NCBI RefSeq assembly: GCF_963676685.1
Contig: NC_092349.1
Span: 75,970,473-76,034,472 of the forward strand
DNA length: 64,000 nt
DNA from: Mytilus edulis
Taxonomy: Eukaryota
Reading direction: 5' to 3'
Positions 4,513 to 64,000 of the stretch are shown here, piece after piece. Each line of letters begins with the position of its first letter. Positions within the stretch are counted from its first letter, which is position 1. The translations under genes were made by a program, and so were the position numbers. The notes under the pieces were generated by a model that saw nothing but the letters and a program-made list of their open reading frames with translations, had not been told where the DNA came from and made no database searches.

Positions 4513-5255
4513 AACTTCACATACTTTTTAGTTAAATTATTCTTATATCTGTATATTTTTATGTGATGATTCTTTAATTCATTTTTGAGTTCTTGAATTT
4601 TTATTGAGCTTCAATTTGGGGATCATATAAAACATGTTGTGATATACAAACTTCCTATTGAGCAAGAATAATGAATGAGTCAAGATATACTTAGCATGAC
4701 TTCCTGTACAACCCCCGTGTTATTTTAAAAACATGAGTTTTGTTTTTTTTATAAGACGACGGGCGTATCATGCGCTCGTAGCGCAGCTGTTTATTTTGTT
4801 CTTTATATTTTTTATAAATATATTAGAGAAATGACGGAATGACAGCAAATACAATGCAATTTCCTATATAATCATTATTTCTGAATGGCCTAACTCTTTT
4901 AAAGAATAGTTGATATGCACTGATTTTCGAACGTGTCCATACGATATCAGTTTTATAGAAAGTTAGCAAGAATTGTACACTTGAAAAATGTAATTAACCA
5001 GAAGGACCGGAAGGACAGACAGAGGAATGGACGTGCGATATTTTATGTACGCGCTATATGGTGAAAAAAATATATAGTTATTGACCAATAAAATTACGCA
5101 ATGAGAGAAGGATTTTAATCGCAACTAATCCAATCGTTTTTGCCAAATCAAAAAATTTAAAGTTATAGTTTCATTGTTTGGACAAAAGCATTCTTTAGCA
5201 AATTGAAGATTCTCCTTTATAAGATTTTGCTTTTGTTTTCTGACCACATAAAACA

Positions 5256-5455
5256 GAAGATGTGGTATAATTGCCAATGAGACAACTCTCAACAAGAGAC
5301 AAACATGACATAGAAATTAATAACTATAGGTCACCGTACGGTCTTCAACAATGAGCAAAGCCCATATCGCATAGTCAGCTATAAAAGGTCACGAAATGAC
5401 AATGTAAAACAATTCAAACGAGAAAAGTAACGGCCTAATTTATGTGCTGCAATTT
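5256..5455 (+). repeat. Family A SINE/MITE-like repeat, near full length.
   Basis: Contains the family A consensus gaagatgtggtataattgccaatgagacaactc...tataggtcaccgtacggtcttcaacaatgagcaaagccc...tagtcagctataaaagg..cgaaatgacaatgtaaaacaattcaaacgagaaaa.taacggcctaatttatgt. Confidence 0.8.
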
Positions 5456-7507: not shown

Positions 7508-7700
7508 AAGATGTGGTATGAGTGCCAATTATGAGACAACTCTCCATCCAAGTAACAATTTATAAAGTAACCATTATAAGTCAAGGCACGACTTTCAACA
7601 TGGAGCTATGGTTCACACCGAACAGCAAGCTATAAAGGACCCCAATATTACTAGTGTAAAACCTTTCAAACGAGAAAACCAACAGTCTAATCTATATTAA
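7508..7700 (+). repeat. Family A SINE/MITE-like repeat (diverged copy).
   Basis: gatgtggtatgagtgccaattatgagacaactctccatccaagt... is similar to the copies at 5256 and 57497. Confidence 0.75.
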
Positions 7701-8416
7701 AGCGAAAAATGAGAAACACTTCAACTGAATCATGGATATATTTAAATGAACAAAGATAAGTTAAAAATAATGACAATTATAATGCATTTTAAAGAAAAAG
7801 GAAGCTTGGAAATTATTTCCCAGTTGTATACACTCTTTACAAACTGCAGGGGATTGTATACTATTATGATTTCTTCATTGAGTTATTATCTTTCCTGTTT
7901 CTGCTCATATGTTTGTATCCACTGGTAAACATGCCACCTCCTTGGGAAATGTAAAACAATTTTAAAATGACTTTCTGTTGGATAAGTCTTTTATTGATAT
8001 ATAAAGTTAAAATATTCTTACTTCTAACTAGACAAGACACCTTTTAGGTGTATGCATGTGGATGAAAAAATGAAGTCTAAAAAATATTAACTTGGCAGCA
8101 ATTGCTTTAACATCCTTTAAGGCTTTGATTATATGATTGAAACAGGATTTTAAAAAATATCGCAAAAATTAAAATCGCATTTCAGTCTCAAATGACAAAA
8201 TCGCAATAATAAATGCACGCAATAATTTCTGAATTTACAGTATTGTTTTTATTACAGGCTTTTGATTTGGGACAGGCACATTAACTTGTTAGATGGCAAA
8301 CCCTCCCAGTAATCTGGGAAAGTCATTGAAAGTGGTGCGACAGCACAACACAAAATAAATATACAAAACAATGAACAAAAAAAAATATAAACAGCAAAAA
8401 ACAACACTGAGTATAT

Positions 8417-11020
8417 TTGTAGGACTCTAAAGTGCGATGGGGACGCTTAAATGCGATGGTCACGCTACAGTGCGATAGCCTACGCTAAAGTACGACGGTT
8501 TGATACGCTAAAGTGCGTTTTTCTGCAAATACATCGACGTTATAAACTTTCGACAGCATTATGACGAGAATGTTTGTCCAGATAAAGGATTTTTATTACA
8601 CGAGAAAAGAAAGAAGAGAAAAGAAAAACAAATGATCCCAATCTGGTTTTTTTGGTCGTTGCTGGAATAGGTTAACTTAATTTGTGAAACTGTAGAAATA
8701 ACTTTAATCAAAACATTTACTTATTAATTGAATTATTCAATACAAAAAAAATACTATACGGTTTGTTATTTCTGTTAAATAATAAATACTAGCATATGTC
8801 AATTAGACATCAACCTAACAAACCGATGTGTAGTATCATAATACTATATGATTGCCAATACGACAACTATCTATCTTCGACCTAATGGCATTGAAATATG
8901 CAACTTTAATTATGACCTTTAACACGGAGCATTGTCTTATAACATATTATTAGCTCACCTGTCCCGAAGGGACAAGTGAGCTTATGCCATCACTTGGCGT
9001 CCGTCGTCGTCCGTCGTCTGTCGTCGTCTGTCGTCTGTCGTCGTAAACTATTTCAAGAATCTTCTCCTCTGAAACTACTGGGCCAAATACTTTCAAACTT
9101 TAACTGAATGTTCCTTAGGGTATCTAATTTGTAAATTGTATTCGAAGTTTTGATCTATCAACAAACATGGTCGCCATTGCTAAAAATAGAACATAGGGGT
9201 CAAATGCAGTTTTTGGCTTATAACTCAAAAACCAAAGCATTTAGAGCAAATCTGACATAGGGTAATATTGTTTATCAGGTCAAGATCTATCTGCCCTGAA
9301 ATTTTCAGATGAATCAAACAACCCGTTGTTGGGTTGCTGCCCCTGAATTGATAATTTTAAGGAAATTTTGCTGTTTTTGTTTATTATCTTGAATATAATT
9401 ATAGATAGAAATAAACTGTAAACAGCAATAATGTTCAACAAAGTAAGATCTTCAATTAAGTCAATTTGACCAAAATTGTCAATTGACCCCTTAAGGAGTT
9501 ATTGCCCTATAAAGGCTTTTCACAATTTGTTCATCATGTTGACTTACTTTAAAAAATCTTCTCCTTTGAAACTGCTGTATCAATTTCAGCCAAACTTAGG
9601 CTAAATGAGTTTCAGAGTATCTAGTATAAATTTTATATTTTATTTCCTTATATGTCAAGAAACATAGATCCTATGGCTAAAATAGAACATAGGAGAAAAT
9701 GATTATTTTTTTTGGCTTTTGAAGAAAATAGGACGATCCAAAAAACATTTAAATAAATTGAAAAGCCAAAATAATCATTGATGAGAGATTTAACCAAAAG
9801 AATTAAGGTGAGCGATTCAGGCTCTTGAGAGCCTCTTGTTATATTAAAAAAGCGACTTCCACTACATTCCAGATGTACTAACATTATACTTCAGTGTAAC
9901 CATTACACCTTTTGAACAACTATCGTACTTTAAATAAACATAAGAAGATGTAGAATAAACTATCCATTCAATCCCAAATGCCGTTTATGTATGCGGCTAA
10001 TAATCATACGGCCGTCAACGTAAAGCATTGGTCCATGCCGCTACAAGCTATATAGGGTTATACAATGCCCAGTGTAAAACAATTCAAAAGATAAAGACTA
10101 CGGTTGACACATAATCAAAACAATAAACGAAAATGTAATAGGAACTCAGCAACAAACGAAAACCATTGCCTGAACCACATTCCCGTTACACCATCGGACT
10201 TTAGCGTGTCATACCATCGCACTTAAGGTAGCACTCCTCAGTTAGAAAATAAAATTAAAAATGAGCCCCAAAATGTTTTATCATTTCCTATTCCTGGATT
10301 TCTAATACATTAACCTTACTGTTTGTGTTGTACATGTGCATATGTATGTAATCAGTATCTTCCATAGATTTGATTTTCAAAAGTTAAAAGGGTGAAAGCT
10401 TAATTCCTTTTATGTGTATCCATGGCAACATTCTGCATTTATTTACCATAAAATATTGCAAAAAGGGGGGTGAACATGTCACATATCCCCCCAAAATTTG
10501 GATCAAACTAGAATTTCAATGCCTTTGAGTGATACCTTTTTAGAAACTGTTTTCATAAATCTTCCTAATGATCAAATAATAAATGGGTGTCTGGCGGCTC
10601 TGGCCCCTCATTTTTTCGTAAAATCCAATCACAAAGTTCGTGCGATAAAAATTTGGAAAATAACATTACAATAATTGCCAGACCAATGTATGGTATGGAC
10701 ATGCAAATACGGACTGTCATACAGAAAACAGCCTATATTACATACATTACATAACCTTGTTGTTCATATAAACCCAATACAAAGGCTATTTTAATACTCA
10801 GCTATCTAAAAATGAATTTTATTGCACACTAGCTCTCATATTTTAAAAATCCACAGGGACCAAAATGCGAAACTACACACCTAACTTTGGAGTGCTACCT
10901 AAGCATGATTTCTGATTGCACTTAAAAAACTAATAACCATCGCACTTTAGCATCTGACACCATCACACTTTAGCGTAGACCATTGTACTTTAGCGTGACC
11001 ATCGCACTTTAGAGTCCTAC
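8417..11020. mobile_element. TIR-bounded element about 2.6 kb long. Its ~100-bp terminal inverted repeats are made of 20-bp tandem subrepeats (ctaaagtgcgatgg...). A third, internal TIR copy sits at 10150-10232.
   Basis: Left end gtaggactctaaagtgcgatggggacgcttaaatgcgatggtcacgctacagtgcgat... (8417-8517). Right end 10940-11020 is its reverse complement and begins identically (gtaggactctaaagtgcgatgg). The interior carries family D and A-like repeats and no ORF. Confidence 0.7.
8950..9900 (+). repeat. Family D composite repeat (modules tcttctcct(c/t)tgaaac..., gtcaagatctatctgccctga, ttgggttgctgcccctgaattg, ctaaaatagaacatagg.. aatgcagttttt) with a (CCGTCGT)n microsatellite head.
   Basis: The same module order recurs at 60100-61195 and inside the 61200-64000 tandem units. 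The GTC-type simple repeat lies at 9000-9050. Confidence 0.7.
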
Positions 11021-11087
11021 ATATTTAAACCTTACAGATTAACCACAATTTCCACATGATTTTCAACTCCTGTATAATATTTTTCAG

Positions 11088-11178
11088 CAAGCTGGATGAC
11101 TTTGCAGGTGAATTTCCAAGTCTTATCCCGCCAGAAGTTACAATTGACGAGGAAAAGTTAAAACAGTGGGAGGCTGAG
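11088..11178 (+). CDS. Short coding exon (S)KLDDFAGEFPSLIPPEVTIDEEKLKQWEAE. It enters in phase 2 and leaves in phase 0.
   Basis: Acceptor tatttttcag (AG 11086-11087) and donor GAG|GTAAGA (GT 11179-11180). The entry phase matches exon 1290-1399 and the exit phase matches exon 12313. Confidence 0.55.
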
Positions 11179-11640
11179 GTAAGATACATTTATTCTTAAA
11201 CTCTATTCAGTAGCTTTATCAAAAGTTTTAACAAGAGTTTTTCTTTGCATTTTGAAAGCTTTCGTATGAGAAGAATTATAAAATTTAGATCATATGGTGA
11301 CCTGTATATTCATTGGGGCATGATAAAAACTTTTTTTTTCTTTTTTTCCAATTCCAGAAATATGGATATTCTTTCACAAAATAGTTGTAATTGTTTAATT
11401 GTTTGTGTGTTAGTTGAAAAATTACCGGTTGTTCATGGAAACATAATGCAGGATTTAATTCTTTATATAACAGTGACCATTATTTGTAACATGCAAATTA
11501 ATACATGTCAACCCCAAGTTTGACAGGGGTATAACAATACCTTACCTGGACTAACCCTGGTCTTCAGTAAAGTTTATTCTAAGATAGGGGTTTCCATTTC
11601 GTTGTGTGAGATGTATGATTATGCAGCTATGTATAAAAAA

Positions 11641-11812
11641 GAAGATGTGGTATGATTGCCAATGAGACAACTGCCCTCAAGAGACAAAATGACACAGAAA
11701 TTAACAACTGTAGGTCACTTTATGGCCTTCAACATTGAGCATTAAGCCCGTACCACATAGTCAGCTATAAAAGGCCTCGAAATGACAAATGTAAAACAAT
11801 TTAAACGTGTCT
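11641..11812 (+). repeat. Family A SINE/MITE-like repeat copy lying in the intron.
   Basis: gaagatgtggtatgattgccaatgagacaactgccctcaagagacaaaatgacacagaaattaacaactgtaggtcac.... Confidence 0.8.
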
Positions 11813-12312
11813 ATTTTTATTGAATTACATGTGTTGAAAGGTTGCAACACTATCTGCAAAAAACCTTTTTTTGCTTGTTACAGGCAAATATATTGTCATT
11901 ATAATCTCCAATTTCAAATCACAGCTGGAATTTCAAGCCCAACCGTAAGGCTTCATCCATGTCTGAAGACATTTGGTTTCAAAGAAAATTACTTCGAGTA
12001 CAATTGAATGGATCTCTATAATTAATGTGTTGTAAAACAGCACAGAAAAAAGCCTTAAATAACATAGACATTTAAAGAATAAAACCTTCATAAATTGAGT
12101 CTCAAAACAGCTATGTCCATTTTAATTGATTAAGTGATTTAAAATGGGGTCTGGTGTGACTTTTCAAATAGATGGGTTTTTTATTTTATTTTTTTATGTT
12201 TCTCCTTTTTTTTAATCTATGACATTGAATTAAAAACATTTGGAAAGTTGTTTATATTTACAAACCAGTCATAAATATTTATTGAAATAAATATCATTTT
12301 ACTTTTTTTCAG

Positions 12313-14208
12313 TTATATAGCAGTCACTGTGATTTACCTCCCTTGCCACCAGATGACAGTGATTTAGACAGCAATCTTTCTGTCAAAGAAACTGATGGTA
12401 AATATTACACTGCAGTCGCTGTAGACAGTAATGTGAATACAATTAACAAGTATTATGCTCCAGATTTTGACCCTTCATTTAAACTGAATGAGAAGTCTAA
12501 AACAGTACCATCTCAGTTAGTGGATATTCAACCTGATCCATTAAATGCATCTACATCTATGATGTATGAAGCAGAAAAGATAACAAGTACTCAACCTACA
12601 CTTCTGGACTACAATCCACATACAGCAGGTAGCCTAACTGGACCAAATCACTTACCACAACCTCTTAGCTATAGCCATGCTTTCTCTGGATATCAACCAA
12701 CATGGCCACATTATAGGCCAACATCACCATCTTACGAGCCTACAAGTCCTGCTATCCCAGAGTTTCAACCAACATGGCGAAGTTATAGTCCAAATAACTT
12801 ACCACAATCTTTAAGCTCTAGCCATGCTATCCCACAGTATCAACAGACATCACCAAGTTACAGTCCAACATTGCCAACCTACCAGCCAACAAGTCCCGCC
12901 TATTTTATAAAATCATCTCATTTTCTTAAGAATCTTGATGGGAATATGTCTCTCTATGATCCTATAACTAGAGCTATGAAGGAAACAGAGTTAAAATGTA
13001 ATGTTAGAGGATGGGGAGGAGGAAGAAGTGTTAGAGGAATAGGCAGAGGAAGAGGTGTTAGAGGAAGGACAGAAGAAGGTAGAGATGTAAGAGGAGGAGA
13101 AAGCTGGAGAGGCCAGGAATACACTGGTCAATGGCCAAGAGGTAATAGTCAGAGTGGCTGGAATCAGAAAGATGATATAAGAGGGATGGAAAGAAAAAAA
13201 GAGCAAAGAAGTCATAGAAGATTTGATGAACATTTAGATAAGAGGGAGTCTGATAAATCTAAATCTAGGAGTATATCACCTCCAAATAGTAGACGTAGAA
13301 GATCAGGAAAACAATTGCCTCCTTTCAGAAGAGCTAGCAGATCAAGCTCTTACAGGAGACCCAGTAGATCTAGAAGTAGATCTTACAGGAGGCCCAGTAG
13401 ATCTAGAAGTAGATCTTACAGAAGACCCAGTAGATCTAGAAGTAGATCTTACAGGAGACAAAGTAGATCTAGAAGTAGATCTTACAGGAGACCCAGTAGA
13501 TCAAGAAGTAGATCACATTACACCAGAAGAATGAGGAGATCAAGAAGTAGATTGCCAACTTATAAAAGATATAGTAGATCTAGGAGTAGATCAAGACATA
13601 ACAGAAGACATAAGCGAAGTTCTTCTAGATCATTAAGTAGGGAACGAGATAGAGATAAAGGAGAGGGTGGCAACATCAGTGCCAGTAGCCATGATAGGCA
13701 ACTTGAAAGGTCTAGAAGTAAACGATCAAGTCATGTGATATCCAGAAGAAGAAGATTTTCAGGGTCAAAAAGTAGGAGACGATCATCAAGCACAACCTCT
13801 TCAAGGTCAGGAAGGAGAAGTTCAAGATTAATGAGCAGAAGTTTATCAAGGTTAGACAGAAGTTCATCAAAGAAAAAATCGAGAAGGTCAGGAAACTTAA
13901 GTAAAGTGAAACAAGTGACTAGCAGAAGTACCTCAAGATCAATATCCAGAACAAGACAATCCAGACAATCAAGATGGTCTGAACTTTCACCTGCAAGATC
14001 CAATGAAATATGGAGTTCAAGATTGGAGATGTTGGCAAAATCTGATTATGATGGCTTTATGAAAGCAAAGAGAGATTTAGTTTCTTATGAAAGTACAAGT
14101 CCATCACCTTTTAAAGATAACATATCAAAACGTAGAACAGATGATGAGAGAAAACAGCAGGGACATCCCTACCTATCTTCTTATCAAGACATAACTGAAG
14201 GTAACTAG
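12313..14208 (+). CDS. Large exon of about 630 codons. It holds degenerate RNA polymerase II CTD-like heptads (YQPTWPH, YRPTSPS, YEPTSPA, YSPTLPT, YQPTSPA), an RGG-like block, and a long Arg/Ser (RS) domain with the tandem unit SRSRSRSYRRPSR. The product is an SR-related protein.
   Basis: The ORF in the six-frame track is 621 aa (12343-14208). It is open back to the acceptor ctttttttcag (AG 12311-12312). The stop is TAG at 14206-14208, overlapped by a possible donor AAG|GTAACT at 14201. The heptads and RS dipeptide runs were read directly. Confidence 0.75.
   Translation, partial: LYSSHCDLPPLPPDDSDLDSNLSVKETDGKYYTAVAVDSNVNTINKYYAPDFDPSFKLNEKSKTVPSQLVDIQPDPLNASTSMMYEAEKITSTQPTLLDYNPHTAGSLTGPNHLPQPLSYSHAFSGYQPTWPHYRPTSPSYEPTSPAIPEFQPTWRSYSPNNLPQSLSSSHAIPQYQQTSPSYSPTLPTYQPTSPAYFIKSSHFLKNLDGNMSLYDPITRAMKETELKCNVRGWGGGRSVRGIGRGRGVRGRTEEGRDVRGGESWRGQEYTGQWPRGNSQSGWNQKDDIRGMERKKEQRSHRRFDEHLDKRESDKSKSRSISPPNSRRRRSGKQLPPFRRASRSSSYRRPSRSRSRSYRRPSRSRSRSYRRPSRSRSRSYRRQSRSRSRSYRRPSRSRSRSHYTRRMRRSRSRLPTYKRYSRSRSRSRHNRRHKRSSSRSLSRERDRDKGEGGNISASSHDRQLERSRSKRSSHVISRRRRFSGSKSRRRSSSTTSSRSGRRSSRLMSRSLSRLDRSSSKKKSRRSGNLSKVKQVTSRSTSRSISRTRQSRQSRWSELSPARSNEIWSSRLEMLAKSDYDGFMKAKRDLVSYESTSPSPFKDNISKRRTDDERKQQGHPYLSSYQDITEGN
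13330..13545 (+). repeat. Coding minisatellite: 39-bp unit (agtagatctagaagtagatcttacaggagaccc), about 5 copies, encoding repeated SYRRPSRSRSRSY.
   Basis: Near-identical 39-mers lie in tandem inside the RS domain of the 12313-14208 exon. Confidence 0.8.
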
Positions 14209-17190: not shown

Positions 17191-17965
17191 AAACCATCAC
17201 CATTGTCATGTAAGCAACAAACCTAATGACACACGTAAGCCAAAGACGCACAGTCTTCAGCAATAGACAGCTGTCTTTGAAATTCTCACAGTTGCTTTTG
17301 GGTTTTTTCTACCCAATAAACATATTCTATACACATTGACATGTTAATTTAATGCATTGTGTATCAATGCCTAATGGTAAAGCCTTTGCCTTTGGTCAAA
17401 TTTAGATATTGATGACTAAATCTCACAATAATGTATGTTTAAAAAAATCAAAATTATGAATACTCGTATACCTGTCGATTTTTTTTACAAATAAACATCT
17501 GTTTCATGTCATTTTTATGTTCCATGTAGATTTATAATACTTTTTAATTTTTCAATTCAAGAAGCCAAAAAGTTGCCTTTCATATCTTCTTCATGGCTGA
17601 TTAAATCTTTCTTGATAGATTTTTTTTTACAAGGCTGATAGTGCCTTCAAAATACAGAAAATAATTTGACAACTAGTTTTTTATTTGGTTTTTATTTTGA
17701 ACAAATTAAATCATTGGAATTTATGCATAAATTAACAACAAATTATTTCATGATGAGAAAAAAAAGAAGGAAAATAAGTGCCACCAAGTGTATATCCAAG
17801 AAAGGTTTGAATTCTGACTCTTTTAATAATACAAATAGTTCCGCTTGAATACTTTTCATTATTTTAAGGGAATGATTTTTTTTTAGCCAAATTCTTGCTG
17901 ACATCTGATCTTAGTACAATGTATTGAGAATTCTATTTTTCACTAACAATCTCCTTTTGTTTCAG

Positions 17966-18164
17966 CTTCAATCTTTAGGAATTGACAGTAATACTATAAA
18001 ATTCCACACAGTTACTATGGAGTCTGATAAATATATATGTGTCAGAGAAAACAACCAGCTGATCATATTTAACATAGATAATCCCAAACATCCATACAGA
18101 ACACCAGTACAGGCGGACTCCTGTATCGTCAATCCCAGAAAACAACATATTGTAGCAGTAAGAT
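17966..18164 (+). CDS. CLTC: Clathrin heavy chain exon (LQSLGIDSNTIKFHTVTMESDKYICVRENNQLIIFNIDNPKHPYRTPVQADSCIVNPRKQHIVAVR, ends phase 1).
   Basis: This matches the conserved clathrin heavy chain N-terminus [31 protein letters not shown]...[21 protein letters not shown]. Acceptor ttttgtttcag (AG 17964-17965) and donor AGAT|GTGAGT (GT 18165-18166). Confidence 0.85.
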
Positions 18165-18165
18165 G

Positions 18166-18512
18166 TGAGTTTTATTGCCCCATCTACAACAGTAGAGGGG
18201 CATTATGTTTTCTGGTCTGTGGGTCCATTCATTTATTAGTCCATCCTTCCATTCCTATATCGTACCGTCTGTCCCGCTTCAGGTTAAAGTATTTGGTCAA
18301 GGTATTTTTTTTAAGTTGAAGTCCAATCAGTCCAATCAACTTGAAACTTAGTACACATGTTCCCTATGATATGCTCTTTCTAATTTTAATATCAAATTAG
18401 AGTTTTAATCCCAATTTCACATTCCACTGAACAAAGTGTGAGTGGTGCATCTGTGTACTATGGACACATTCTTGTTAGATACAATAGATTACAATTTAAT
18501 GCCATGGTAAAA
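18166..18512 (+). mobile_element. Family C MITE copy: head ..gccccatctacaacagtagaggggcat, a (CCGT/CCAT)n-like core, then caggttaaagt.tttggtcaaggta...gtccaatcaacttgaaacttagtacacatgt...gtgtactatggacacattcttgtt. It is inserted directly after the clathrin exon donor.
   Basis: Other copies lie at 18757-18885 (partial), 20684-20862 (3' half), 33470-33592 (internally deleted) and 50118-50582 (with an internal duplication). Confidence 0.8.
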
Positions 18513-29139: not shown

Positions 29140-29400
29140 GGTATAGCGGGAGGGTTGAGATCTCACAAACATGTTTAACCCCACCGCATTTTTGCGCCTG
29201 TCCCAAGTCAGGAGCCTCTGGCCTTTGTTAGTCTTGTATATTTTTAATTTTATTTTCTTGTGTACAATTTGGAAATTAGTATGGCGTTCATTATCACTGG
29301 ACTAGTATATATTTGTTTAGGGGCCAGCTGAAGGACGCCTCCGGGTGCGGGAATTTCTCGCTACATTGAAGACCTGTTGGTGACCCTCTGCTGTTGTTTT
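29140..29400 (+). repeat. Family B interspersed repeat (gggaggtt.(a/g)gatc.c.c.aacatgtttaac....c.cat...gtcccaagtcaggagcct). A second copy lies at 59745-59960.
   Basis: Shared blocks are read at both loci in the same order. Confidence 0.7.
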
Positions 29401-30101: not shown

Positions 30102-30851
30102 TTATTCCAATACAATGAAACTAGAGATTAAATTGATTAATATATAAAATGAGAAATGTGAAAACTTATATAGATAAGAACTAGACCGACTTACAAAACA
30201 TTCCTCTCGCTCATTTTCCAATAATCTCCTTAGTTCTGCTGGAATGTCTTGATCAACGGATGGTCTTTGTCTTTTCAATTGCTGTTTGGGTAACAAAGGG
30301 AGAATCCATTTTGCCTTTGATAGAACTTTTGTCCTTCTGTATGGCAGACTGTCTCTAATTTTTTCTAGATGTCCAAGAAATCCTCCCCACCACTTTTGCT
30401 CTGTATGTTCTATTTGATCAGTGAATAGACATTGCCACTGTGGTATTCTAGATTTGATCTTATTTATATCTATCTTCTCGAATTGAGGATTGATAACTTT
30501 TGGTATTCCCTTTGGTAAATTAGGTTTCCCGGAAATTAGTTGAATAATGCCATGTTCAGTTTTCCATTCGCTGTCTTGGAAAGCTTTGTACTGCATTTTC
30601 ACATTATGTGTTGCTAAATCCCGGATAAACTTATAATGCAAAGGTTTAGTATGCTTACGAATGTCGTTAAGGCTTGATGTTATCCATGAACGAATGTCAT
30701 AAATAGCCTCTATATCCTTAACGTTCGGAAGCATCTCCTTCAGACGAGGCATTGTTTCAGCATCATTCCTACGAAGAGTTTCAGCTATTCGGCTAAAAGC
30801 AGCATCCACATCTTCGTGTGTATGTCCTACTGGTAAAAATGATAAATGCAC
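30102..30851 (-). CDS. Terminal exon of a transposase-like gene: VHLSFLPVGHTHEDVDAAFSRIAETLRRND... about 249 codons to the stop. It carries the probable third catalytic acidic motif (HTHEDVD).
   Basis: The track shows an ORF at 30102-30851. On the minus strand an acceptor ttttcttttcag immediately precedes it. Phase 0 joins it to exon 32844-32960. Confidence 0.65.
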   Translation of the reverse strand: MHLSFLPVGHTHEDVDAAFSRIAETLRRNDAETMPRLKEMLPNVKDIEAIYDIRSWITSSLNDIRKHTKPLHYKFIRDLATHNVKMQYKAFQDSEWKTEHGIIQLISGKPNLPKGIPKVINPQFEKIDINKIKSRIPQWQCLFTDQIEHTEQKWWGGFLGHLEKIRDSLPYRRTKVLSKAKWILPLLPKQQLKRQRPSVDQDIPAELRRLLENEREECFVSRSSSYLYKFSHFSFYILINLISSFIVLE

Positions 30852-36601: not shown

Positions 36602-37194
36602 TTATACCTTTTTGACTTTAAGATTGGGTAAATATTTTTTCCACATTCCGTAGAAGGCTGATGGCATTAAAAATTCTTCTGATCTTTCCTTCATATCTTC
36701 TTTATATCTTATATAAATCATGCACTGTCGTGTCCGATAAGGTAGTAAGAGTGTATTACAGTCGGGCATCCTGTCAACGTAATATGTAGCGTATTCTTCC
36801 AGCCAGTTTATAGCTTGGAGTGATTTTATGCTGGCACAGTAGTGTCTCTCCGATACAGAAAAACGTGCTCCTCCTATGAACTTTTTTCTATTAGAGTAAT
36901 AGAAATTTTTGTGAATTCCAAGCATTCTCATCAATGCCTTTGGACAAACGACATGTCCGTTCTGTATACGGAAGTATGGTGTATACTCCATATTAGTTTC
37001 AGAGAACTTTTTTAATAACCACTGGTTGCGACCATTTATTGTCTTTGACCAGAATTCCAATCGCATGTTTTTAACCTCCACAAGAGAGAATTTCTTCGTA
37101 CAAACTTTACTACAACAGCGCCTACATGACTTTAAATCCTTCTGAATACTTGCTACTTTTGTATGACGAGCAAGGAGACGACTTCTCTCTGGAT
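36602..37194 (-). CDS. Terminal exon of a second minus-strand gene: (H)PERSRLLARHTKVASIQKDLKSCRRCCSKVCTKKFSLVEVKNMRLEFWSKTINGRNQWLLKKFSETNMEYTPYFRIQNGHVVCPKALMRMLGIHKNFYY...KVKKV, running to the stop. It has a Cys-cluster (CRRCCSKVC) domain.
   Basis: The track shows an ORF at 36602-37081. The frame is open upstream to the minus-strand acceptor catttttgtag (ctacaa at 37195-37200 on the plus strand). The phase-1 entry matches the donor of exon 38509-39439. Confidence 0.55.
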
Positions 37195-37954
37195 CTACAA
37201 AAATGTGATATGATAGTTTTGTTAATAAACTAAAACACTAATTTTATGTATTTATTTGTTTTTATCTATTTTAAGCTCTCTTTGTTATTTTTCCCGCTTT
37301 ACTTAAAGCTATTTTTCCCGCTTTACTTAAAGCTATTTTTCCCGCTTTACTTAAAGCTATTTGATCATCAAACGTAATCAATCAATCTTATGTATTTGAA
37401 CATGCAATTAACCGTAAGTGTTTCAACCACATGTGATTTAATCAACTGACTAAAGAAAAGATTAACGAACAATATGTAACATATGAATACTGATAAAGAA
37501 CAATTGACCTTCACAAAATATCTCATGAACCTTTAAGACCATCAATTAACGTTAGCCATAATGAGCACTCATTGAAACATTATTCTCAAATCATGACAGA
37601 TTTTAATAGGATAGTACAAATCATTGCTCTTCTTTTAAAACACGAAAACAATACGCAATAAATTAAATGCGTCCGATGCATTTTTCTAGATTAACCTCCA
37701 CCAAGAACTCACAAAGCTTCGATGCATAAAAACGATACAGTTGAATAGCTATTTAATAAAAAAAAATCACTTAAAAATAATAGCCAAAATCCTTCAAATC
37801 CTTCAAACGCCAACTTTGCCTAAGGTAGTTGAAACGTTTCTAATTATGCTAGTAAACACCAAATTTTATTAAGGAAATTCACAACCATTTAATGTACTGA
37901 AATAAGTGTATTATCGTTTGTCGAGCAAAGGCAAGTCATATTTCTCTTTAGAAT

Positions 37955-38400
37955 GAAATTCAAAACAGTGTGGCTGTGGCTATTGATTGACACATTAAAT
38001 TCATCCATTGGCTGGGACAATTTAGGTGAACGTTTGTTTGTAACAACCACTGCTCACTATGTACTTTTTAAAGACACTTAAACTATTGGGTCACCAAAGG
38101 TTCTTCACCAAATGTTCTCAACACCTTAATAAAGTAATTCGAAAAATTAATCAGAAATAACACGATGTTTTGATTTATACCAATTATATAAATCAAAACA
38201 TAAAGGTTATTCCTGATTAATTTTTCGAATTATTTTATAAGTAAAGGCGTTAAGAAACCGTTGGTGACCCCACAGTTTAAATGTCTATCGTAGGTACGTC
38301 GTGAACAGTGGACGTTACAGACAAACGTTCACGTAAATTGTCCCAGTCAATGGATGAATTTAATGTGTCAATCAATGGCCACAGCCACACTGTTTTGAAT
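37955..38400. mobile_element. Near-perfect palindrome/foldback element of about 450 bp (cagtgtggctgtggc...gccacagccacactg) with a palindromic AT-rich centre. It sits in the intron of the 36602-39439 gene.
   Basis: 37960-38060 is the exact reverse complement of 38290-38395. The centre 38115-38240 is itself palindromic (taataaagtaattcgaaaaattaatcag...ctgattaatttttcgaattattttat). Confidence 0.85.
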
Positions 38401-38508
38401 GTCATTCTATATTACTTTCTAACTTATGGATAGAGAGTTGTCTCATTGGCACTCATACCACATCTTTCTATCTCTATTATGATAACAAACAAAAAAAAAA
38501 ACACTTAC

Positions 38509-39439
38509 GTGATTGCGATTCAAGCAAAGGTTTTGTTTCTTCTTGGGGAAATGTAGCTCTAACATCATGATACATTTCTGTCATACCAATTGATGCATCT
38601 GAATACACTGAAACATTTTCATTTATACTGCTTTCTGAGCGAGAACTAGCAAGATATGAAGTTCCTTCAAAACCAGAAGATAGTGACAGTATTTCGGTTG
38701 ATGCTAGATGAAGTGTTTCCGTATCATCTTCGTTGAATTCATAAGGCGACGAAGGGCAAATATTACATCTCAGTTTTGTGCTAATTTCTGAACCCATATA
38801 ACAAGAACTTTCATGTTCACTGCTGGAAATTCCGAACGTTGGTTCTAACTCGATTAAAGTTCTATTTACGGAATAATCAAACAGTCCAAAGTCATAATTA
38901 TCATCTGATATGTCTGCCACCCCACTAATCACTGGTATTTTTCTTGGTGTACTGGTCATTAAAGCTTTGTTTGGCGATTTTAATGTTGTGTCATAATTTA
39001 CTGCATACTCTTCAAATGACTCTAATGTTTTTGTTTCTAGAATCAACGACAGGCTGGATTCAGCAGTGTTGCTTAAGTCTCCAAAACAATATGAATCAGA
39101 CTGTCCAAGATTATGTAAATCAGAATCTCCAAGATTATACGAATCCCCTAAATTATGTAGCTCCGACAATGAATCTCCTAAATTTACCCCGTGTTTTTCG
39201 GTATAATTTAAACACACTACTGAGTTTTCCGCTGATTCTAAAAAATGAGAACCGACAAGATTAATTGAATTTACAAATGTATATTCATCAGTAGCGCTCG
39301 ATGCATCAGCGAAAACAGTCACATCGTTCAATCGATTATTATGAGCATAAACTAAAAGTGACAATGGATATTTGTAGCCGTATTTTATTCGCTGAACTCC
39401 GGCAGTTTGTGTTGTGTTTCTGTTTTCATGTATACCCAC
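38509..39439 (-). CDS. Exon encoding a Ser/Asp/Asn-rich low-complexity protein segment (…NLGDSYNLGDSDLHNLGQSDSY…SSEHESSCYMGSEISTKLRCNICPSSPYEF…PLLESQS). The 5' boundary is undefined.
   Basis: The track shows an ORF at 38477-39439 on the minus strand (alternative GTG start, no clear ATG). A canonical minus-strand donor TCAC|GTAAGT (acttac at 38502-38507 on the plus strand) gives a phase-1 end that joins exon 36602-37194 in frame. Confidence 0.5.
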
Positions 39440-41271: not shown

Positions 41272-41470
41272 ATATAATCACAACAATAAATCATAATAAA
41301 AGAAGATGCGGTATAATTACAAAAAAGGCATTTCTCCGCAAGAGACCAAATTACACAGACATTAACCACTATATGTCACCATACGGCCTTCAACAAGACA
41401 AATGTTAATAAGTTCAAACGAGAACACTAACGGCGTAATTTATGTACAAAATAAGGATCGAACAAAATAA
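41272..41470 (+). repeat. Diverged family A SINE/MITE-like copy.
   Basis: gaagatgcggtataattac...tatgtcaccatacggccttcaacaag...caaacgagaacactaacggcgtaatttatgtac. Confidence 0.55.
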
Positions 41471-42067
41471 TATGTAAAACAGCAACAAACGACAACGTTA
41501 CCACTGAATTACAGGTTCACGAATAGGGACAGGCAATTTTAGAATGTGACCGAACCAAGTATATATAAGCGAACGCCTTACACCCCTCTTTTTTCTGTAG
41601 AGTATACATTCGGTTTTTTAAAAAAAACCGCCAATAACTACCCAAATGTATCTTGAAGTCTTTGATCATGAATATTTAAAACATTTTAATTATAATAATA
41701 TATGTGAACCTCTATATCTTTGAATTAATCATTTTTTTTTTTATTTTTTTAAAGATATGAATATTTCAAATTGACTTACCTCTGAAACTGGGTTGCAGTT
41801 CTCTCTTATATTCGTCTTGACACCATTCAAAGTTTGAACAGATAACAACACGCTTAAACACAAAGCCGATAAAAAAATACAGCAGTCCATTATGTTCTAA
41901 TTGGAAAGTAAGAAACACATGGTTTAAAAATATACATGTAAAAAATGCGCACGTGTCTAGCAGGCGTGGCTTCGCAATGCGATTAAATATAACCAGTGGT
42001 GTGACATTGTAGCAGTCCACTATTTTTTTTCTTCTAAATCGAGATCAAACGGTCATATTACGCAATA

Positions 42068-46194: not shown

Positions 46195-46302
46195 GACTAT
46201 ATGTTGAAGGCCGTATGGTGACCTATTATATTTGTTAATTTGTGTCATTCGGTCTCTTGTGGAGGGTTGTCTCATTGGTTATCATACCACATCTTCTTTT
46301 TT
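46195..46302 (-). repeat. Family A SINE/MITE-like copy (reverse orientation) in an intron.
   Basis: ...gttgaaggccgtatggtgacctat...gttgtctcattggttatcataccacatcttc. Confidence 0.7.
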
Positions 46303-52433: not shown

Positions 52434-53147
52434 ATCGATTAGCTGAAACAAAGAAGAATGACCATCATTGGAGGAAAACTATGATGCACTTGCTAGCCAA
52501 AGTGGAGAAATATTTGACGAACATGTGTTTTTTGAATTATTATTGTTGTCCCTATAGAAATAATATAGATATTGTAAATAATGCGTAGTTGTTAATTATT
52601 GTCATAGAAAGTATCATATAGCTTTACTCTGCGTAAGGAATTTACAGCAGTCATTGTGACAAAGATGGGGATTTCTTTATCATTTACACCAGAAATTTGC
52701 GAAAAACAAAAAGAAAGCAATGGAAAATACCAATAATAATAATTATAATCAGTCACGTTTTGATTCATTGTGCTTATTAATTGCATTTGAAGTTGGATGG
52801 CGATGTTTAATTGATAAATGATATGAAAATATCATTGACTTTAAGTGTTCTACCATCTTAGATGAAGCGAATTAGTATCTACAACGCATATTTCAATATT
52901 AAAGACAGATACATACGACCGGTTCACAAAATCGTTAGAAAAATAAATCTAATTTCAAATAAAGAGTTCCAAAGTAATATGCAATTTCAATGTAATCAAT
53001 AGATCTGAAAAAAGAAACATTTATATGAAATTCATCTTTAAATAAATACTTCGACTGGTATGGTACACGTTTTTGTTTACCAGAAATATGCATCATTTCA
53101 GGGCCTTTTATTGTTGAAGATTCGGTATGGATTTTGCTCTTTTTTGA

Positions 53148-53238
53148 AGGCCATACGTCACAGTAAACCTATAGCTTTTTTATGTCATTTGGTCCCTTGC
53201 GGAGAGTTTTCTCATTCGCAATCATACCACATCTTCTT
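53148..53238 (-). repeat. Family A SINE/MITE-like fragment (reverse orientation).
   Basis: ...gtcatttggtcccttgcggagagttttctcattcgcaatcataccacatcttc. Confidence 0.65.
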
Positions 53239-53329
53239 ATTGAATATTTGAAAAAGAAAATGTTACCGGTTGATTATGATATACATGTACTGTATGTACC
53301 TTTCTAATCTATGAATAAGTGTGATTAGA

Positions 53330-59058: not shown

Positions 59059-59744
59059 ATGTAATACTTGCAGTAAAAAATTAAATGACCAGAGGAGTTT
59101 AAAAGACATGTGCAATTATGATTGATTGATTGATGTTTGTTTAACACCACCTTAGCACAAAAAGGCTTCACTGCTGCTATTTGCAGTTATGATGAAAACA
59201 AAAAGAGTACCGGTACTAATAGTTAAAAAAGAATACATTGCTGCATCCTTAAGATAATAAAATTCATAAATTTTTTGTCTGAATATTTTATTAATTATTA
59301 CCTTCTGTAGTATTGTAATAATAACCGTAACATTTTTGAGTGATTTATATTTAATTCTGTGATATGTACAGTACATATGTGATTCTATATTATTTATACA
59401 TTAATACATTTAAATTTGATCTTTTAATAAAATACACAATTATGTGATATGTGATACATTATACATTAATCTTTTAATAAAATACACAAGCAATTGAACA
59501 TTTATCAGTTTCTGATTATGACATTAATGTACTTGCTTAATCTATGATTTTTGAAAATTTGTCCATATTATACAGCTGTTGGCTTTTAAATATTTTTGGC
59601 ATTGAGCGTTCCCAATAAAGGATGCAGATAACAGGAAAGTTTATAAAGGCCACGTCCACTCTGTGTATTATTTACATTTGTATCCATCTGATGAGTAAAG
59701 CCTTTTTCAACAGATTTTTATAGTTCGTTCTTATGTTGTAATGG

Positions 59745-59960
59745 TTACACTGTCCCAGGTTAGGGGAGGTTTGGGATCCCGCTTACATGTTTAACATCGC
59801 CACATTCTGTATGTATGTGCATGTCCCAAGTCAGGAGCCTGTAAATCAGTGGTTGTTGTTTGTTGATATGTTACATATTTGTTTTTCGTTCATTTTTTGT
59901 ACATGAAATAGGCCGTTAGTTTTCTCGTTTGAATTGTTATACATTTGTCATTTTAGATCC
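59745..59960 (+). repeat. Family B interspersed repeat, second copy.
   Basis: ccaggttaggggaggtttgggatcccgcttacatgtttaacatcgccacat...gtcccaagtcaggagcctgtaaat. Confidence 0.7.
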
Positions 59961-59984
59961 TTTTATAGATGACTATGCGGTATG

Positions 59985-60098
59985 GGCTTTGCTCATTGTT
60001 GAAGGCCATATCATGATCCAATGGTTGTTAATTTCTGTGTCATTTGGTCACACTTGTGGAGAGTTGTCACATTCACATTATACCACATCTTCTTTTTA
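59985..60098 (-). repeat. Family A SINE/MITE-like copy (reverse orientation).
   Basis: ...ttgttgaaggccatatcatgatcc...gttgtcacattcacattataccacatcttc. Confidence 0.7.
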
Positions 60099-60099
60099 G

Positions 60100-61195
60100 C
60101 TCACCTGGCCCAAAGGTTGTCCGGCATTGTTAACTTTTACAAAAATCCTGTCTGAAACTACTAGGCCATATTTAACCAAACTTGGCCACAGTCATCATTG
60201 GGGTATCTAGTTTTTAAAAAAATGTGTCCGATAACCCAGCCAATTAACCAAGACGGCCGCCATGGCTAAAAAAAGAGCATAAGGGTAAAATGTAGATTAT
60301 GGCTTATATCTCTGAAACCAAATCACTTAAATCAAATTTGTTAGGTGCAAAATTGTTAATCAGGTCAAGATATATCTGCCCTAACATTACCAGACAAATT
60401 GGACAATCCTTTGTTGGGTGCTGCCCCTGAATTGGTAATTGTAAGGACATTTTGCAGTTTTTGTTATTACAATAACAATTTATTTGGAATATTATTATAG
60501 ATAAAGATAAACTGTAAGCAGCTATAATGTTTGGCAAAGTAAGATCTACAAATAATTCAACATGACCAAAATGGTCACAATCATTTGGTATCTTGTTTAC
60601 AAAATGTGTCCGATGACCCCACCTGCCAACCAATATGGGCGACATGGCTGAAAATAGAATAATGTGGTAAAATGCAGTTTATGGATGATATCTGAAACTA
60701 GAGTAGTCATAGCAAACTTTACAGTTGGTCAAGATCTATCTGTCCTGACATATTTAGACGAATCAGATAAGCTGGTGTTGAGTTGGTGCCATTAATTTTA
60801 AGGAAATTTTGCAGTTTAGGGTTATTATCTTGAATATTATTATAGATGGAGATAAACAGTAAATAGCAATAATCTTAAACAAATTAAGATCTACAAATAA
60901 GCCAAACTACCAAAATGGTCAATTGACCCCATAAGGAGTTATTGCCCTTTAAAGTCAAAATTAACAATTTTTTGAAATTTTTGTAATCTTTTATAAAAGT
61001 CTTCTCCTGAAACAACTGAGACATGTTTAACCAAACTTTACAACAATAAGCATTAGGGTATCTGTCCAATTACCTACCAACATGGCAGACATGGCTAAAA
61101 TAGAATATAGGAGAAACATGCAGTTTTTTGTCATATATCTGAAAATAAAACAAAAGTATAACGGTTGCATTACTTCATGCATCAATTGTAAAAAA
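60100..61195 (+). repeat. Family D composite repeat: about three tandem sub-units of the module set (gtcaagat.tatctg.cctgacat, ttgggtgctgcccctgaattg, gtccgatgacc, catggctaaaatagaa, tatctgaaa).
   Basis: Module order matches 8950-9900. Sub-units start near 60100, 60560 and 60910. The ORF at 60304-60645 is rejected. Confidence 0.7.
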
Positions 61196-61199
61196 AAAA

Positions 61200-64000
61200 A
61201 TATCAGGTTGGCGACACAGGTTCCTTGGAGCCTCTAGTTTATATCTACACAGTTTTCAGTATTAACATTAAACAACTATAACTGTTGTCAATAATCCGAG
61301 AAAGATAGGAAATATAGCTAGATGAAGAGGGTGAACACACATAAAACATAAAACTTATGGGTTTTGACATGATGTAAAATTGTCCAAAAAATTGTTTGGA
61401 CAGCTTAAACATTGAATAATACATTTCACTTGCCTGGATTTTATTCCCCCTTCCTTTAATAAATCCTTGATCTGGTCCAAATTACTTTACCTTACATTTT
61501 AAAACATTTGAAACAGGTGTCCAAACACACGGACAAAAAGTTACTAATGTGGCCGTCTACAGAGATCCATTATATGTTAACTCTGAGGTTTTTAGTTTCT
61601 TACTTTGTTCATGCATGGTGAGCTGTGTTTGACTTTGACGTACTTTACGTTTTATGTACATACCACTTTGTTGTTGGAAATTATTTATAACTGAGTTTAA
61701 GCAGTACTTCAATGATGGCTACGTAAGACAGAGACCGGTACAGAAACTCTCAAAATACGTAAACGATAAATTATTGTTTTATTCAATATGAATTTTGTAT
61801 TTTGTCAAATCATCCCCAAAATTAGATTGAATACAAAAACGTGTAACAAAAATACCAAACTCCAATGCAAAGTTAAGTTGAGTTTGTGAGTCACCAGTTT
61901 ATTTTACAAATTTATCAAAAAAAAAAATCAACTGTCGAGAGTGGATAAATACCGTATCACACGAGATTTGGTGGTGCAATATGTTTCTGTAATGATTTTA
62001 GAAGATATGCAAGCAATATTAATCCTTCTTTTCAACCTTCTTTTCAATTGACCCCATAAGGAGTTATTACCCTTTAAAGGCAAATTTAACAATTTTTTGG
62101 AAATTTTTGTAAACTTTTATAAAAGTCTTCTCCTGAAACAACTGAGACAAGTTTGACCAAATTTGACCACAATAAGCATAAGGGTATTTAGTTTAAAAAT
62201 GTGTCCGATGACCCTGTCTGCCTACCAACATGGCAGAAATGGCTAAAATGTAATTTAGGAGAAACATGCAGTTTTTGTCTTATATATCTGAAACTAAAGC
62301 AAAAGTATAACGGTTGCATTATTTCATGCATCAATTGTAAAAAAAATATATCATGTGGGCGACATATATAGCTAGGTTCAATGGAGCCTCTAGATTATAT
62401 CAACACAATTTTCAGTTTCACATTAAACAACTATAACTGTTGTCAATAATCCGAGAAAGATTTAGGAAATACAGCTAGATGAAGATGGTGAACACACAGA
62501 AAACAATAAACTGATGGGTTTGTCATGATGTAAAATTGTCCAAAAATTTGTTAATCCTGGACAGCTTTAACATTGAATAATACATTTCACTTGCCTTGAT
62601 TTTATTCCCCCTCCTTTTATAAATCCTTGATCTGGTCCAAATTACCATACCTTACATTTTAAAACATTTGAAACAGGTGTCCAAACACACGGACAAAAAG
62701 TTTCTAATGTGGCCGTCTACAGAGATCCATTATATGTTAACTCTGAGGTTTTTAGTTTCTTACTTTGTTCATGCATGGTGAGCCGTGTTTGACTTTGACG
62801 TACTTTACGTTTTATGTACATACCACTTTGTTGTTGGAAATTATTTATAACTGAGTTTAAGCAGTACTTCAATGATGGCTACGTAAGACAGAGACCGGTA
62901 CAGAAACTCTCAAAATACGTAAACGATAAATTATTGTTTTATTCAATATGAATTTTGTATTTTGTCAAATCATCCCCAAAATTAGATTGAATACAAAAAC
63001 GTGTAACAAAAATACCAAACTCCAATGCAAAGTTAAGTTGAGTTTGTGAGTCACCAGTTTATTTTACAAATTTATCAAAAAAAAAAATCAACTGTCGAGA
63101 GTGGATAAATACCGTATCACACGAGATTTGGTGGTGCAATATGTTTCTGTAATGATTTTAGAAGATATGCAAGCAATATTAATCATTCTTTTCAACCTTC
63201 TTTTCAATTGACCCCATAAGGAGTTATTACCCTTTAAAGGCAAATTTAACAATTTTTTGGAAATTTTTGTAAACTTTTATAAAAGTCTTCTCCTGAAACA
63301 ACTGAGACAAGTTTGACCAAATTTGACAACAATAAGCATAAGGGTATTTAGTTTAAAAATGTGTCCGATGACCCTGTCTGCCTACCAACATGGCAGAAAT
63401 GGCTAAAATGTAATTTAGGAGAAACATGCAGTTTTTGTCTTATATATCTGAAACTAAAGCAAAAGTATAACGGTTGCATTATTTCATGCATCAATTGTAT
63501 AAAAAAATATCAGGTTGGCGACACATGTTCCTTGGAGCCTCTAGTTTATATCTACACAATTTTCAGTTTTAACATTAAACAACTATAACTGTTGTCAATA
63601 ATCCGAGAAAGATAGGAAATATAGCTAGATGAAGAGGGTGAACACACAGAAAACAATAAACTGATGGGTTTGTCATGATGTAAAATTGTCCAAAAATTTG
63701 TTAATCCTGGACAGCTTTAACATTGAATAATACATTTCACTTGCCTTGATTTTATTCCCCCTCCTTTTATAAATCCTTGATCTGGTCCAAATTACTATAC
63801 CTTACATTTTAAAACATTTGAAACATTAGGTATCCAAAAATACGGACAAAAAGTTTCTAATGTGGCCGTCTACAGAGATCCATTATATGTTAACTCTGAG
63901 GTTTTTAGTTTCTTACTTTGTACATGCATGGTGAGCCGTGTTTGACTTTGACGTACTTTACGTTTTATGTACATAGTCCACTTTGTTGTTGGGAATTATT
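61200..64000. repeat. Higher-order tandem array: ~1150-bp unit, about 2.4 copies, running off the window end. Each unit embeds a family D module plus ~800 bp of unique sequence.
   Basis: Landmarks repeat with period ~1150: tatcaggttggcgacaca.gttccttggagcctctagtttatatctacaca at 61203, 62351 (diverged) and 63499; ggacaaaaagtt.ctaatgtggccgtctacagagatccattatatg at 61540, 62688 and 63842. The ORF at 63361-63588 is rejected. Confidence 0.85.

Follow-up and report, generated by a model that had tools for sequence, protein, structure and literature searches.

What kind of sequence carries inverted arrays of the same short unit at both of its ends, and why does a piece of such an array recur in its interior? 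The question is raised by a 2.6-kb structure in a 64,000-nt stretch of the Mytilus edulis genome (contig NC_092349.1), which we call the window and in which all positions given below without a locus name are counted. We propose that this structure is an old, non-autonomous cut-and-paste DNA transposon of 2,604 bp (8418–11021) of the Ginger2/TDD type, a reading to which we give a probability of about 0.6. The layout of the element, the split array, the signature at its boundaries and its lack of coding capacity are seen in the sequence itself; the superfamily (from the signature of this one copy), the binding role of the units, the original size and the past mobility are inferred.

The Ends of the Element

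A 23-nt tip, TGTAGGACTCTAAAGTGCGATGG, occurs at 8418–8440 and, identical and inverted, at 10999–11021. The terminal 21-mer TAGGACTCTAAAGTGCGATGG has two exact matches in the 64-kb window, again in inverted orientation (8420–8440 on the forward strand and 10999–11019 on the reverse strand), where 0.01 would be expected by chance. The 14-nt core of the repeated unit, CTAAAGTGCGATGG, searched with up to three mismatches, was found 15 times in the window against 2.7 expected, and 11 of these 15 matches lie within the arrays. Five of them, on the forward strand, form the left array (8427, 8446, 8465, 8485 and 8508; range 8427–8521) and four, on the reverse strand, the outer right array (10937, 10960, 10980 and 10999; range 10937–11012). 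Two further cores on the reverse strand, at 10191 and 10214 (range 10191–10227), are internal and show one mismatch each. The units, about 20 bp long with a consensus of approximately nnACGCTAAAGTGCGATGG, run head-to-tail inward from the tip. Tandem Repeats Finder (TRF) reports periods of 19–20 bp for the arrays, and the left and right arms align with 78–81% identity over 77–93 bp (E ~1e-14). A first, sequence-only reading of this DNA had described both ends as inverted arrays of units of about 20 nt: the 21-mer, the core counts, TRF and the arm alignment all confirm this beyond chance.

The left end (8418–8521, forward orientation) consists of the 23-nt tip followed by five head-to-tail units at a spacing of 19–23 bp, 104 bp in total. 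The right end, in reverse orientation, comprises seven units over some 155 bp, once a nested miniature inverted-repeat transposable element (MITE; see below) is removed. Its outer part (10903–11021) starts, at 10903, with the 3′ remainder of the unit that the MITE interrupts, continues with a degenerate unit (approximately 10913–10927) and four good units, and closes with the 23-nt tip ending in ...CCTACA. Its inner two units (10187–10226; cores at 10191–10204 and 10214–10227) carry no tip. The element reported earlier at 8417–11020 is thus real, with its limits best redrawn to 8418–11021; the left flank quoted at the time was wrong, the sequence being ...agtatatttg/taggac..., with one “gta” only.

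The tips and the short duplication that flanks them are perfect, while the arms are only about 80% alike, suggesting that the two arrays were never identical. The tandem units are plausibly binding sites for a transposase. The sequence-only reading had likewise taken them for such sites, by comparison with the ends of CACTA, hAT and Mutator-like elements: the proposed role stands, and the comparison with these three groups does not (see below).

A Nested MITE Splits the Right-Hand Array

The inner two units run straight into AGGTAGCACTCCTCAGTTAG (10226–10245), the inverted partner of CTAACTTTGGAGTGCTACCT (10881–10900). When the terminal inverted repeat (TIR) of this pair is taken to begin at GG, the two sequences delimit an insert of 673 bp (10227–10899) with TAA on each side (10224–10226 and 10900–10902). 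The TIRs of the insert, of the pattern GGTAGCACTCCnnAGTTAG, are 19 nt long and match at 17 of 19 positions; in the window, the pattern has only two sites, inverted with respect to each other (0.09 expected). The 3-bp duplication, TAA, is of the TWA type that characterises PIF/Harbinger elements, and we consider the insert, which is present in a single copy, a PIF/Harbinger-like MITE.

Deletion in silico of the insert and one TAA joins the flanks as CCATCGCACT-TAA-GCATG, which is a full unit, CCATCGCACTTAAGCAT (compare CCATCGCACTTTAGCATC at 10937). The right end then has units at 10, 29, 49, 72, about 95 (the degenerate one), 119 and 142 nt from the tip, spaced 19–24 bp apart, with regular steps of 23–24 bp where the insert was taken out. 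The internal stretch is therefore the inward portion of the right array, displaced by the nested MITE, the insertion of which split the array and so created the appearance of a “third TIR”.

The sequence-only reading had seen there a third inverted copy of the TIR (10150–10232), and had offered two explanations: two abutting or nested non-autonomous elements with a common left end, or an internal solo TIR. What speaks for these is that two units oriented as in the right end do lie some 700 bp inward of that end. The supposed copy amounts to these two units only (10187–10227): it has no 9-nt tip, reading CACTTAAGGTAGCACTCC where the terminus reads CACTTTAGAGTCCTACA, and the terminal TAGAGTCCTACA, sought in the internal copy, is absent from it. 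Because the tip is missing, the stretch does not qualify as a solo TIR, nor does a second element end there. It adjoins, moreover, an insert with its own 19-nt TIRs and TAA duplication, the excision of which restores both a unit and the spacing of the array, and both explanations are now hardly tenable. If the split-array reading is right, family members without the MITE would show a continuous right array, ...CCATCGCACTTAAGCATG....

Boundaries and Target-Site Duplication

The junctions of the element read ...ACTGAGTATATT/TGTAGGACTC...GAGTCCTACA/TATTTAAACC.... Directly outside the perfect inverted tips, the same four nucleotides occur on the left (TATT, 8414–8417) and on the right (TATT, 11022–11025), and the flanks can be written as TATT/TGTAG...CTACA/TATT, a perfect 4-bp target-site duplication; a 5-bp reading fails. 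The reconstructed target, A-TATT-T, agrees with the hexamer RTATAY at five of six positions and TATT fits WRTH, as judged from one site only. A direct repeat of the 6-mer ATATTT is also apparent at the junctions, because a target A-TATT-T and an element that begins with T and ends with A force it. Our preference for the 4-bp over the 6-bp duplication follows from the superfamilies described, only the former having a match among those that we know of. If the 4-bp reading is true, an allele free of the element should read GAGTATATTTAAACC; GAGTATATTTAAACCTTACAG would be expected with either the 4-bp or the 6-bp duplication, and GAGTATATTTGTACATATTTAAACC if the target were TA.

Proposed Assignment to Ginger2/TDD

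Ginger2 elements have been defined by TGTNR termini, 4-bp duplications with a preference for AT-rich RTATAY targets, and TIRs of 45–297 bp (Bao, Kapitonov and Jurka 2010, PMC2836005). They occur in metazoans, including a sea snail, and duplications of 5 bp are made by the Dictyostelium elements TDD-4 and TDD-5 (PMC2836005). MITEs derived from Ginger2 (Ginger2_NA, in Bombyx and Rhodnius) have duplications of the form WRTH or TATA and a TIR that starts with TGTTACGG (PMC3845634).

The window element shares this signature. It has the termini TGTNR...YNACA (TG..CA), with TGTAG at 8418 and CTACA at 11021. TATT provides the 4-bp duplication, one among several readings of the boundary, and the AT-rich hexamer around it is RTATAY-like (TATA or WRTH), for which a single site gives weak support. 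The TIR length is within the expected range of about 45–300 bp, the arms aligning over 77–93 bp and the arrays measuring 104 and about 155 bp. Non-autonomous derivatives, such as the one that we propose here, are known in the superfamily. The two differ in sequence: there is no similarity between the TIRs of Ginger2/TDD and those of the window element. By a rough estimate based on the base composition of the window, TGTNR and a flanking 4-bp direct repeat would coincide in an AT-rich inverted repeat of random sequence with a chance of about 6e-5, and in a rough calculation the signature seen here is orders of magnitude less likely under Tc1/mariner, hAT or Mutator-like elements (MULEs).

Comparison with Integrase-Encoding Loci

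We used the integrase core of the Littorina element Ginger2-1_LS (Additional file 1, PMC2836005) as the query in a search of a protein collection, which gave 525 matches, and fetched nine loci with such an integrase. Inverted repeats flank the integrase gene at five of the nine, and four of these five combine TGTNR termini with a perfect 4-bp duplication: L006 (6898–9305; TATA/TGTTGTGCCCC on the left, TATA on the right), L007 (4909–8703; GTTT/TGTTACGCGCG and GTTT), L010 (4921–8250; CTAC/TGTTACG and CTAC) and L011 (4508–8473; AATA/TGTTGGGC and AATA). In these four elements, the TIRs are 105–200 bp long and contain a repeated motif of 12–16 nt, present in 6–9 copies per end and beginning some 6–10 nt from the tip. 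The motif is GCCCCATCTTCCGACC in L006 (6–8 copies per end), ATCGATCGCGCA in L007 (8–9 copies per end, three of which are head-to-tail at 19-bp spacing) and GCTCCATTTTYAA in L011 (about eight copies). The layout of their TIRs is like that of the window element: a repeated motif, TGTNR termini and a 4-bp duplication. An inverted pair around the integrase of L005 does not start with TGT and was left uninterpreted.

Two other loci, L002 (5576–7940) and L003 (1–267), unrelated contigs from the European Nucleotide Archive with Ginger2-like integrase open reading frames (ORFs), contain foldbacks with arms made of long 21-bp tandem arrays. In L002, where the repeated unit is TTATCAAAGTGAAATA.., the two arrays number about 20 and about 15 copies, and the integrase ORF follows directly downstream of them. 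The L002 foldback has no TGT termini and no clear duplication, and we did not use it as evidence. ORFs for Peptidase_C48, an Ulp1-like protease, adjoin the Ginger2-like integrase ORFs at L002 (11487–15750) and L011 (6748–8157).

Several points weigh against the assignment to Ginger2/TDD. Only a single copy of the element is available, so that any repetitiveness and mobility are putative. A scan of metagenome, bacterial and archaeal genome, and viral contig collections, none of which holds the source genome, for the tip (19–21-mer) and for a pattern of two units gave a single match; this match, in L001, lies in a GC-rich contig without neighbouring units and is due to chance. No partner occurs in the 64-kb window, where the tip is confined to the two ends of the element and the motif matches at 26688, 29181 and 48235 are isolated and attributable to chance. 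The unit motif was not found in the fetched loci covered by the scan (L001–L003), nor did a search of published text for the unit and tip sequences give a match. In formal terms, four readings of the boundary (TA, 6-bp, 4-bp and degenerate 8-bp) can be drawn from the same bases, and the 4-bp and 6-bp readings explain them equally well; at its fifth position, the target hexamer departs from RTATAY. The units of the four comparison elements are in mixed orientation, whereas those of the window element are strictly head-to-tail at a spacing of 19–24 bp and unequal in number (five versus seven), and the arms of the comparison elements are 85–97% similar, as against 78–81% here. Finally, Ginger is a minor group in molluscs, with 98 elements, the share of Tc1/mariner in the total being 41% (PMC10294476).

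Alternative Families and Structures

An element of another or of an undescribed group, with a 6-bp duplication ATATTT (8413–8418 and 11021–11026) and the termini GTAGG...CCTAC, is an unlikely source of these ends. It might be an atypical MULE or Foldback-like element, or a hAT element with a 6-bp duplication: relatives of MuDR/IS256 duplicate 4–10 bp (PMC10045372) and hAT elements exceptionally 5 or 6 bp (PMC7165386). The ATATTT repeat is perfect, but it is automatic under the 4-bp reading, and the 4-bp signature, the one that matches a described superfamily, is confirmed on four real elements. The Drosophila Foldback element (FB) lends this alternative some support, as its ends consist of tandem 10-, 20- and 31-bp repeats. 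FB belongs, however, to the MuDR superfamily, with a 9-bp duplication and arms of hundreds to thousands of bp, where the arrays in the window extend over 100–160 bp, and among the superfamilies described, none is known to us in which G..C termini go together with a 6-bp duplication. IS3EU and GingerRoot resemble the window element in their integrase-related transposases, TIRs of 100–150 bp and TA..TA, sometimes TG..CA, termini, and differ from it in their 6-bp duplications (PMC10045372, PMC6839031). Neither kind of terminus yields a 6-bp repeat here, the flanks being TATTTG and CATATT for TA..TA ends and TATATT and TATTTA for TG..CA ends, and we rejected both groups.

We think it rather improbable that the element represents an undescribed DNA transposon lineage with head-to-tail arrays of 20-bp sites, five versus seven in number, be it of the 6-bp, G..C type or a divergent branch of Ginger. 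The asymmetry recalls Tn7 and phage Mu, in which several sites of about 20–22 bp, more at one end than at the other, serve to bind the transposase, a DDE enzyme with the retroviral-integrase fold. Both are prokaryotic, generate a 5-bp duplication and employ accessory proteins, and the likeness lies in how the ends work only, with no homology implied. Should such a lineage exist, the partner of the window element would bring to light a transposase, or a way of recognising transposon ends, that is new for animals.

There is little to recommend a hAT-type, Ds-like element bounded by TAGG...CCTA (8420–11019) with a decayed 8-bp duplication. Like Ac/Ds elements, which have many non-autonomous derivatives, the window element shows TA..TA-type tips and subterminal, putatively transposase-binding repeats, a combination described as typical of hAT (PMC3260210, PMC4763223), and hAT elements are common in molluscs (PMC10294476). 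The 8-bp flanks, TATATTTG and CATATTTA, agree at six of eight positions, a poor fit to the 8-bp duplication of the superfamily. Two mutations would have to have struck exactly the outermost positions of the duplication, thereby creating TG..CA, with none in the 46 nt of the two tips. The hAT tip consensus is YARNG, with which TAGGA agrees at four of five positions, and the subterminal motifs of hAT elements are short (5–8 nt), irregular and in both orientations, rather than 20-bp units arranged head-to-tail.

Very improbable, too, is a reading in which TA is the duplication (8420–8421 and 11018–11019), the TIR starts with GGACTC and each end has several sites in the style of inverted repeat–direct repeat (IR-DR) elements, which would make the element one of the Tc1/mariner/pogo type. 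The repeat GGACTC...GAGTCC does have TA on both sides, and Tc1/mariner is the commonest class of DNA transposons in molluscs (PMC10294476). The fit is automatic, nevertheless, because TA is palindromic and sits within the TIR's palindromic extension, and the complementarity of the outer G/C and T/A as well as the TATT direct repeat would go unexplained (rough joint chance of at most 1e-4). IR-DR elements do have repeated binding sites, but their ends consist of two widely spaced sites rather than 5–7 tandem units, and the usual start of a Tc1/mariner TIR is CAG.

That no transposon is involved, and that a local stretch or a minisatellite array was merely duplicated in inverted orientation, would accord with the lack of a second copy in the 64-kb window and the searchable collections, but is scarcely credible given that the inverted similarity is limited to the ends, stops sharply at identical 23-nt tips beside a perfect short direct repeat and bears the same signature as four integrase-encoding elements.

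Other groups were rejected on their termini or duplications. CACTA/En-Spm elements have CACTA termini and duplications of 2–4 bp, typically 3 bp; the tips here are TGTAGG or TAGGAC, with CACTA at neither end and no 3-bp duplication beside them. Mutator/Foldback elements duplicate about 9 bp (8–11), and no flanking direct repeat of 8–11 bp was found at plausible boundaries (for example, AGTATATTT versus ATATTTAAA). For Academ (AcademX; Y...R termini and a 3-bp duplication, PMC7165386), the flanks of T8418...A11021 are ATT and TAT. For Sola1 (4-bp AWWT duplication; MITE TIR GGACCG..., PMC3845634), a start at GGACTC gives TGTA and TACA, which is no direct repeat. KolobokP composite elements differ both in their TTAA target and in their terminal repeats, which are direct rather than inverted.

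Interior and Coding Capacity

The sequence-only reading had considered the element a non-autonomous carrier, filled mostly with other repeats, and both statements hold. Inside the element, there is no ORF of more than 78 amino acids (aa) and no Rfam match, and a tblastn search of the window with 120 Ginger2-like proteins detected no integrase remnant. Only the 325 bp at 8522–8846, in which there is no notable ORF, have no significant match elsewhere in the window (self-BLAST); they are probably the element's own non-coding core.

The remainder of the interior includes copies of two repeat families, here called D and X. A diverged X fragment (8847–8933) is 67% identical to the X copy at 11651–11743 (E 3.5e-8). 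It is followed by a nested D repeat (8950–9845, forward strand), which begins with (T)TAGCTCACCTG, contains a CGTC microsatellite and an internal duplication of about 500 bp, and closes with the hairpin GGCTCTTGAGAGCC and, after it, TCTTGT; it is 74% identical to 60116–61038. A small piece of X occurs at 9892–9923, and a second diverged X fragment (10000–10168, reverse strand) is 70% identical to the reverse complement of 59847–60017 (E 4e-18).

In the window as a whole, D repeats occur at 8950–9845, from 26735, and at 60097–61250, 62041–62301 and 63201–63461. They start with (T)AGCTCACCTG, and the copy at 60 kb has a different end, ...GAGCCTCTAGTT. The family is reminiscent of the Helitron/Helentron-type non-autonomous (“pearl”-like) elements of bivalves. 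The X family has at least eight other copies in the window, with 67–83% identity (5251–5445, 7508–7689, 11636–11807, 29148–29217, 41298–41535, 46202–46301, 53093–53241 and 59700–60097). X adjoins a D copy twice, at 60097 and at 9845, which suggests either that D inserts beside X or that the two form an X+D composite.

Proposed Mechanism and History

Transposases of the Ginger2/TDD type are retroviral-integrase-like and combine an H2C2 zinc finger with an integrase-type DDE (rve) domain. Such an enzyme, the gene for which would lie at another place in the genome, would attach to the repeated units, pair the two ends of the element and cut, thereby exposing the conserved CA-3′ ends, which would then be joined to an AT-rich target with a 4-bp stagger; repair of the gaps would produce the TATT duplication. 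The original copy was probably MITE-sized, at about 0.6 kb, and would have grown to 2.6 kb later through nested insertions of diverged X repeats, the 0.9-kb D repeat and the 673-bp MITE with its TAA duplication. With nested insertions of three kinds, the copy is evidently old and no longer active.

Genomic Context

The element plausibly lies in an intron; the sequence-only reading had placed it in one of 10 kb. A plausible exon at 11098–11184 (forward strand; ag/CAAGCTGG...GCTGAG/gta) starts 76 nt past the element and is in the frame of the ORF at 12286–14208. With its right end 76 nt from this probable splice acceptor, the element could affect the splicing of its host gene, and the insertion may fall within the intron's branch-point region. 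The ORF at 12286–14208 (forward strand) encodes heptads like those of the C-terminal domain (CTD) of RNA polymerase II (YSPTSPS-like) and five SYRRPSRSRSRS repeats. Compared with a collection of 5.8 billion proteins, this serine/arginine (SR)/CTD-like ORF gave matches to CTD repeats only, the first search probably having been swamped by its arginine/serine (RS) repeats.

The nearest upstream segments with a coding appearance, both on the forward strand, are an acidic, D/E-rich one at 908–1130 and a histone H3-like peptide at 1290–1380, which may belong to a different gene. They could represent all or part of a gene for an H3 variant or a CENP-A-like protein; no other portion of the histone fold was seen. 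Downstream, an exon at 17924–18319 (forward strand) encodes a clathrin heavy-chain propeller repeat (PF01394, E 3.3e-6) that looks divergent in comparison with canonical clathrin.

On the reverse strand, an ORF of 249 aa (30102–30851) matches Pfam DUF7869 (E 3.7e-27) with the motif LPVGHTHEDVD, and further ORFs are found at 36602–37081 and 38477–39439. The DUF7869 ORF is probably a relic of the transposase of another DNA transposon. As a partner for the element described here, this region (30–39 kb) was rejected: its ends are unrelated and its surroundings have nothing in common with the element. It also includes a large, near-perfect palindrome with arms of 154 nt (37949–38102 and 38256–38409), 88% complementary and separated by a 153-nt gap, with a 33-nt inverted pair in the loop.

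Significance

The element is a probable case of a known type, the Ginger2-like non-autonomous transposon, and should not surprise specialists in the field. Its practical value is in genome annotation: the superfamily is rarely annotated, being easily mistaken for hAT or left unclassified, and a curated non-autonomous example is now at hand. The locus also shows that a “third TIR” can be imitated by a nested MITE. Should the 20-bp units prove to be binding sites, their head-to-tail layout of five at one end versus seven at the other would lend itself well to studies of how a eukaryotic transposase of the integrase-like kind recognises its two ends and tells them apart.

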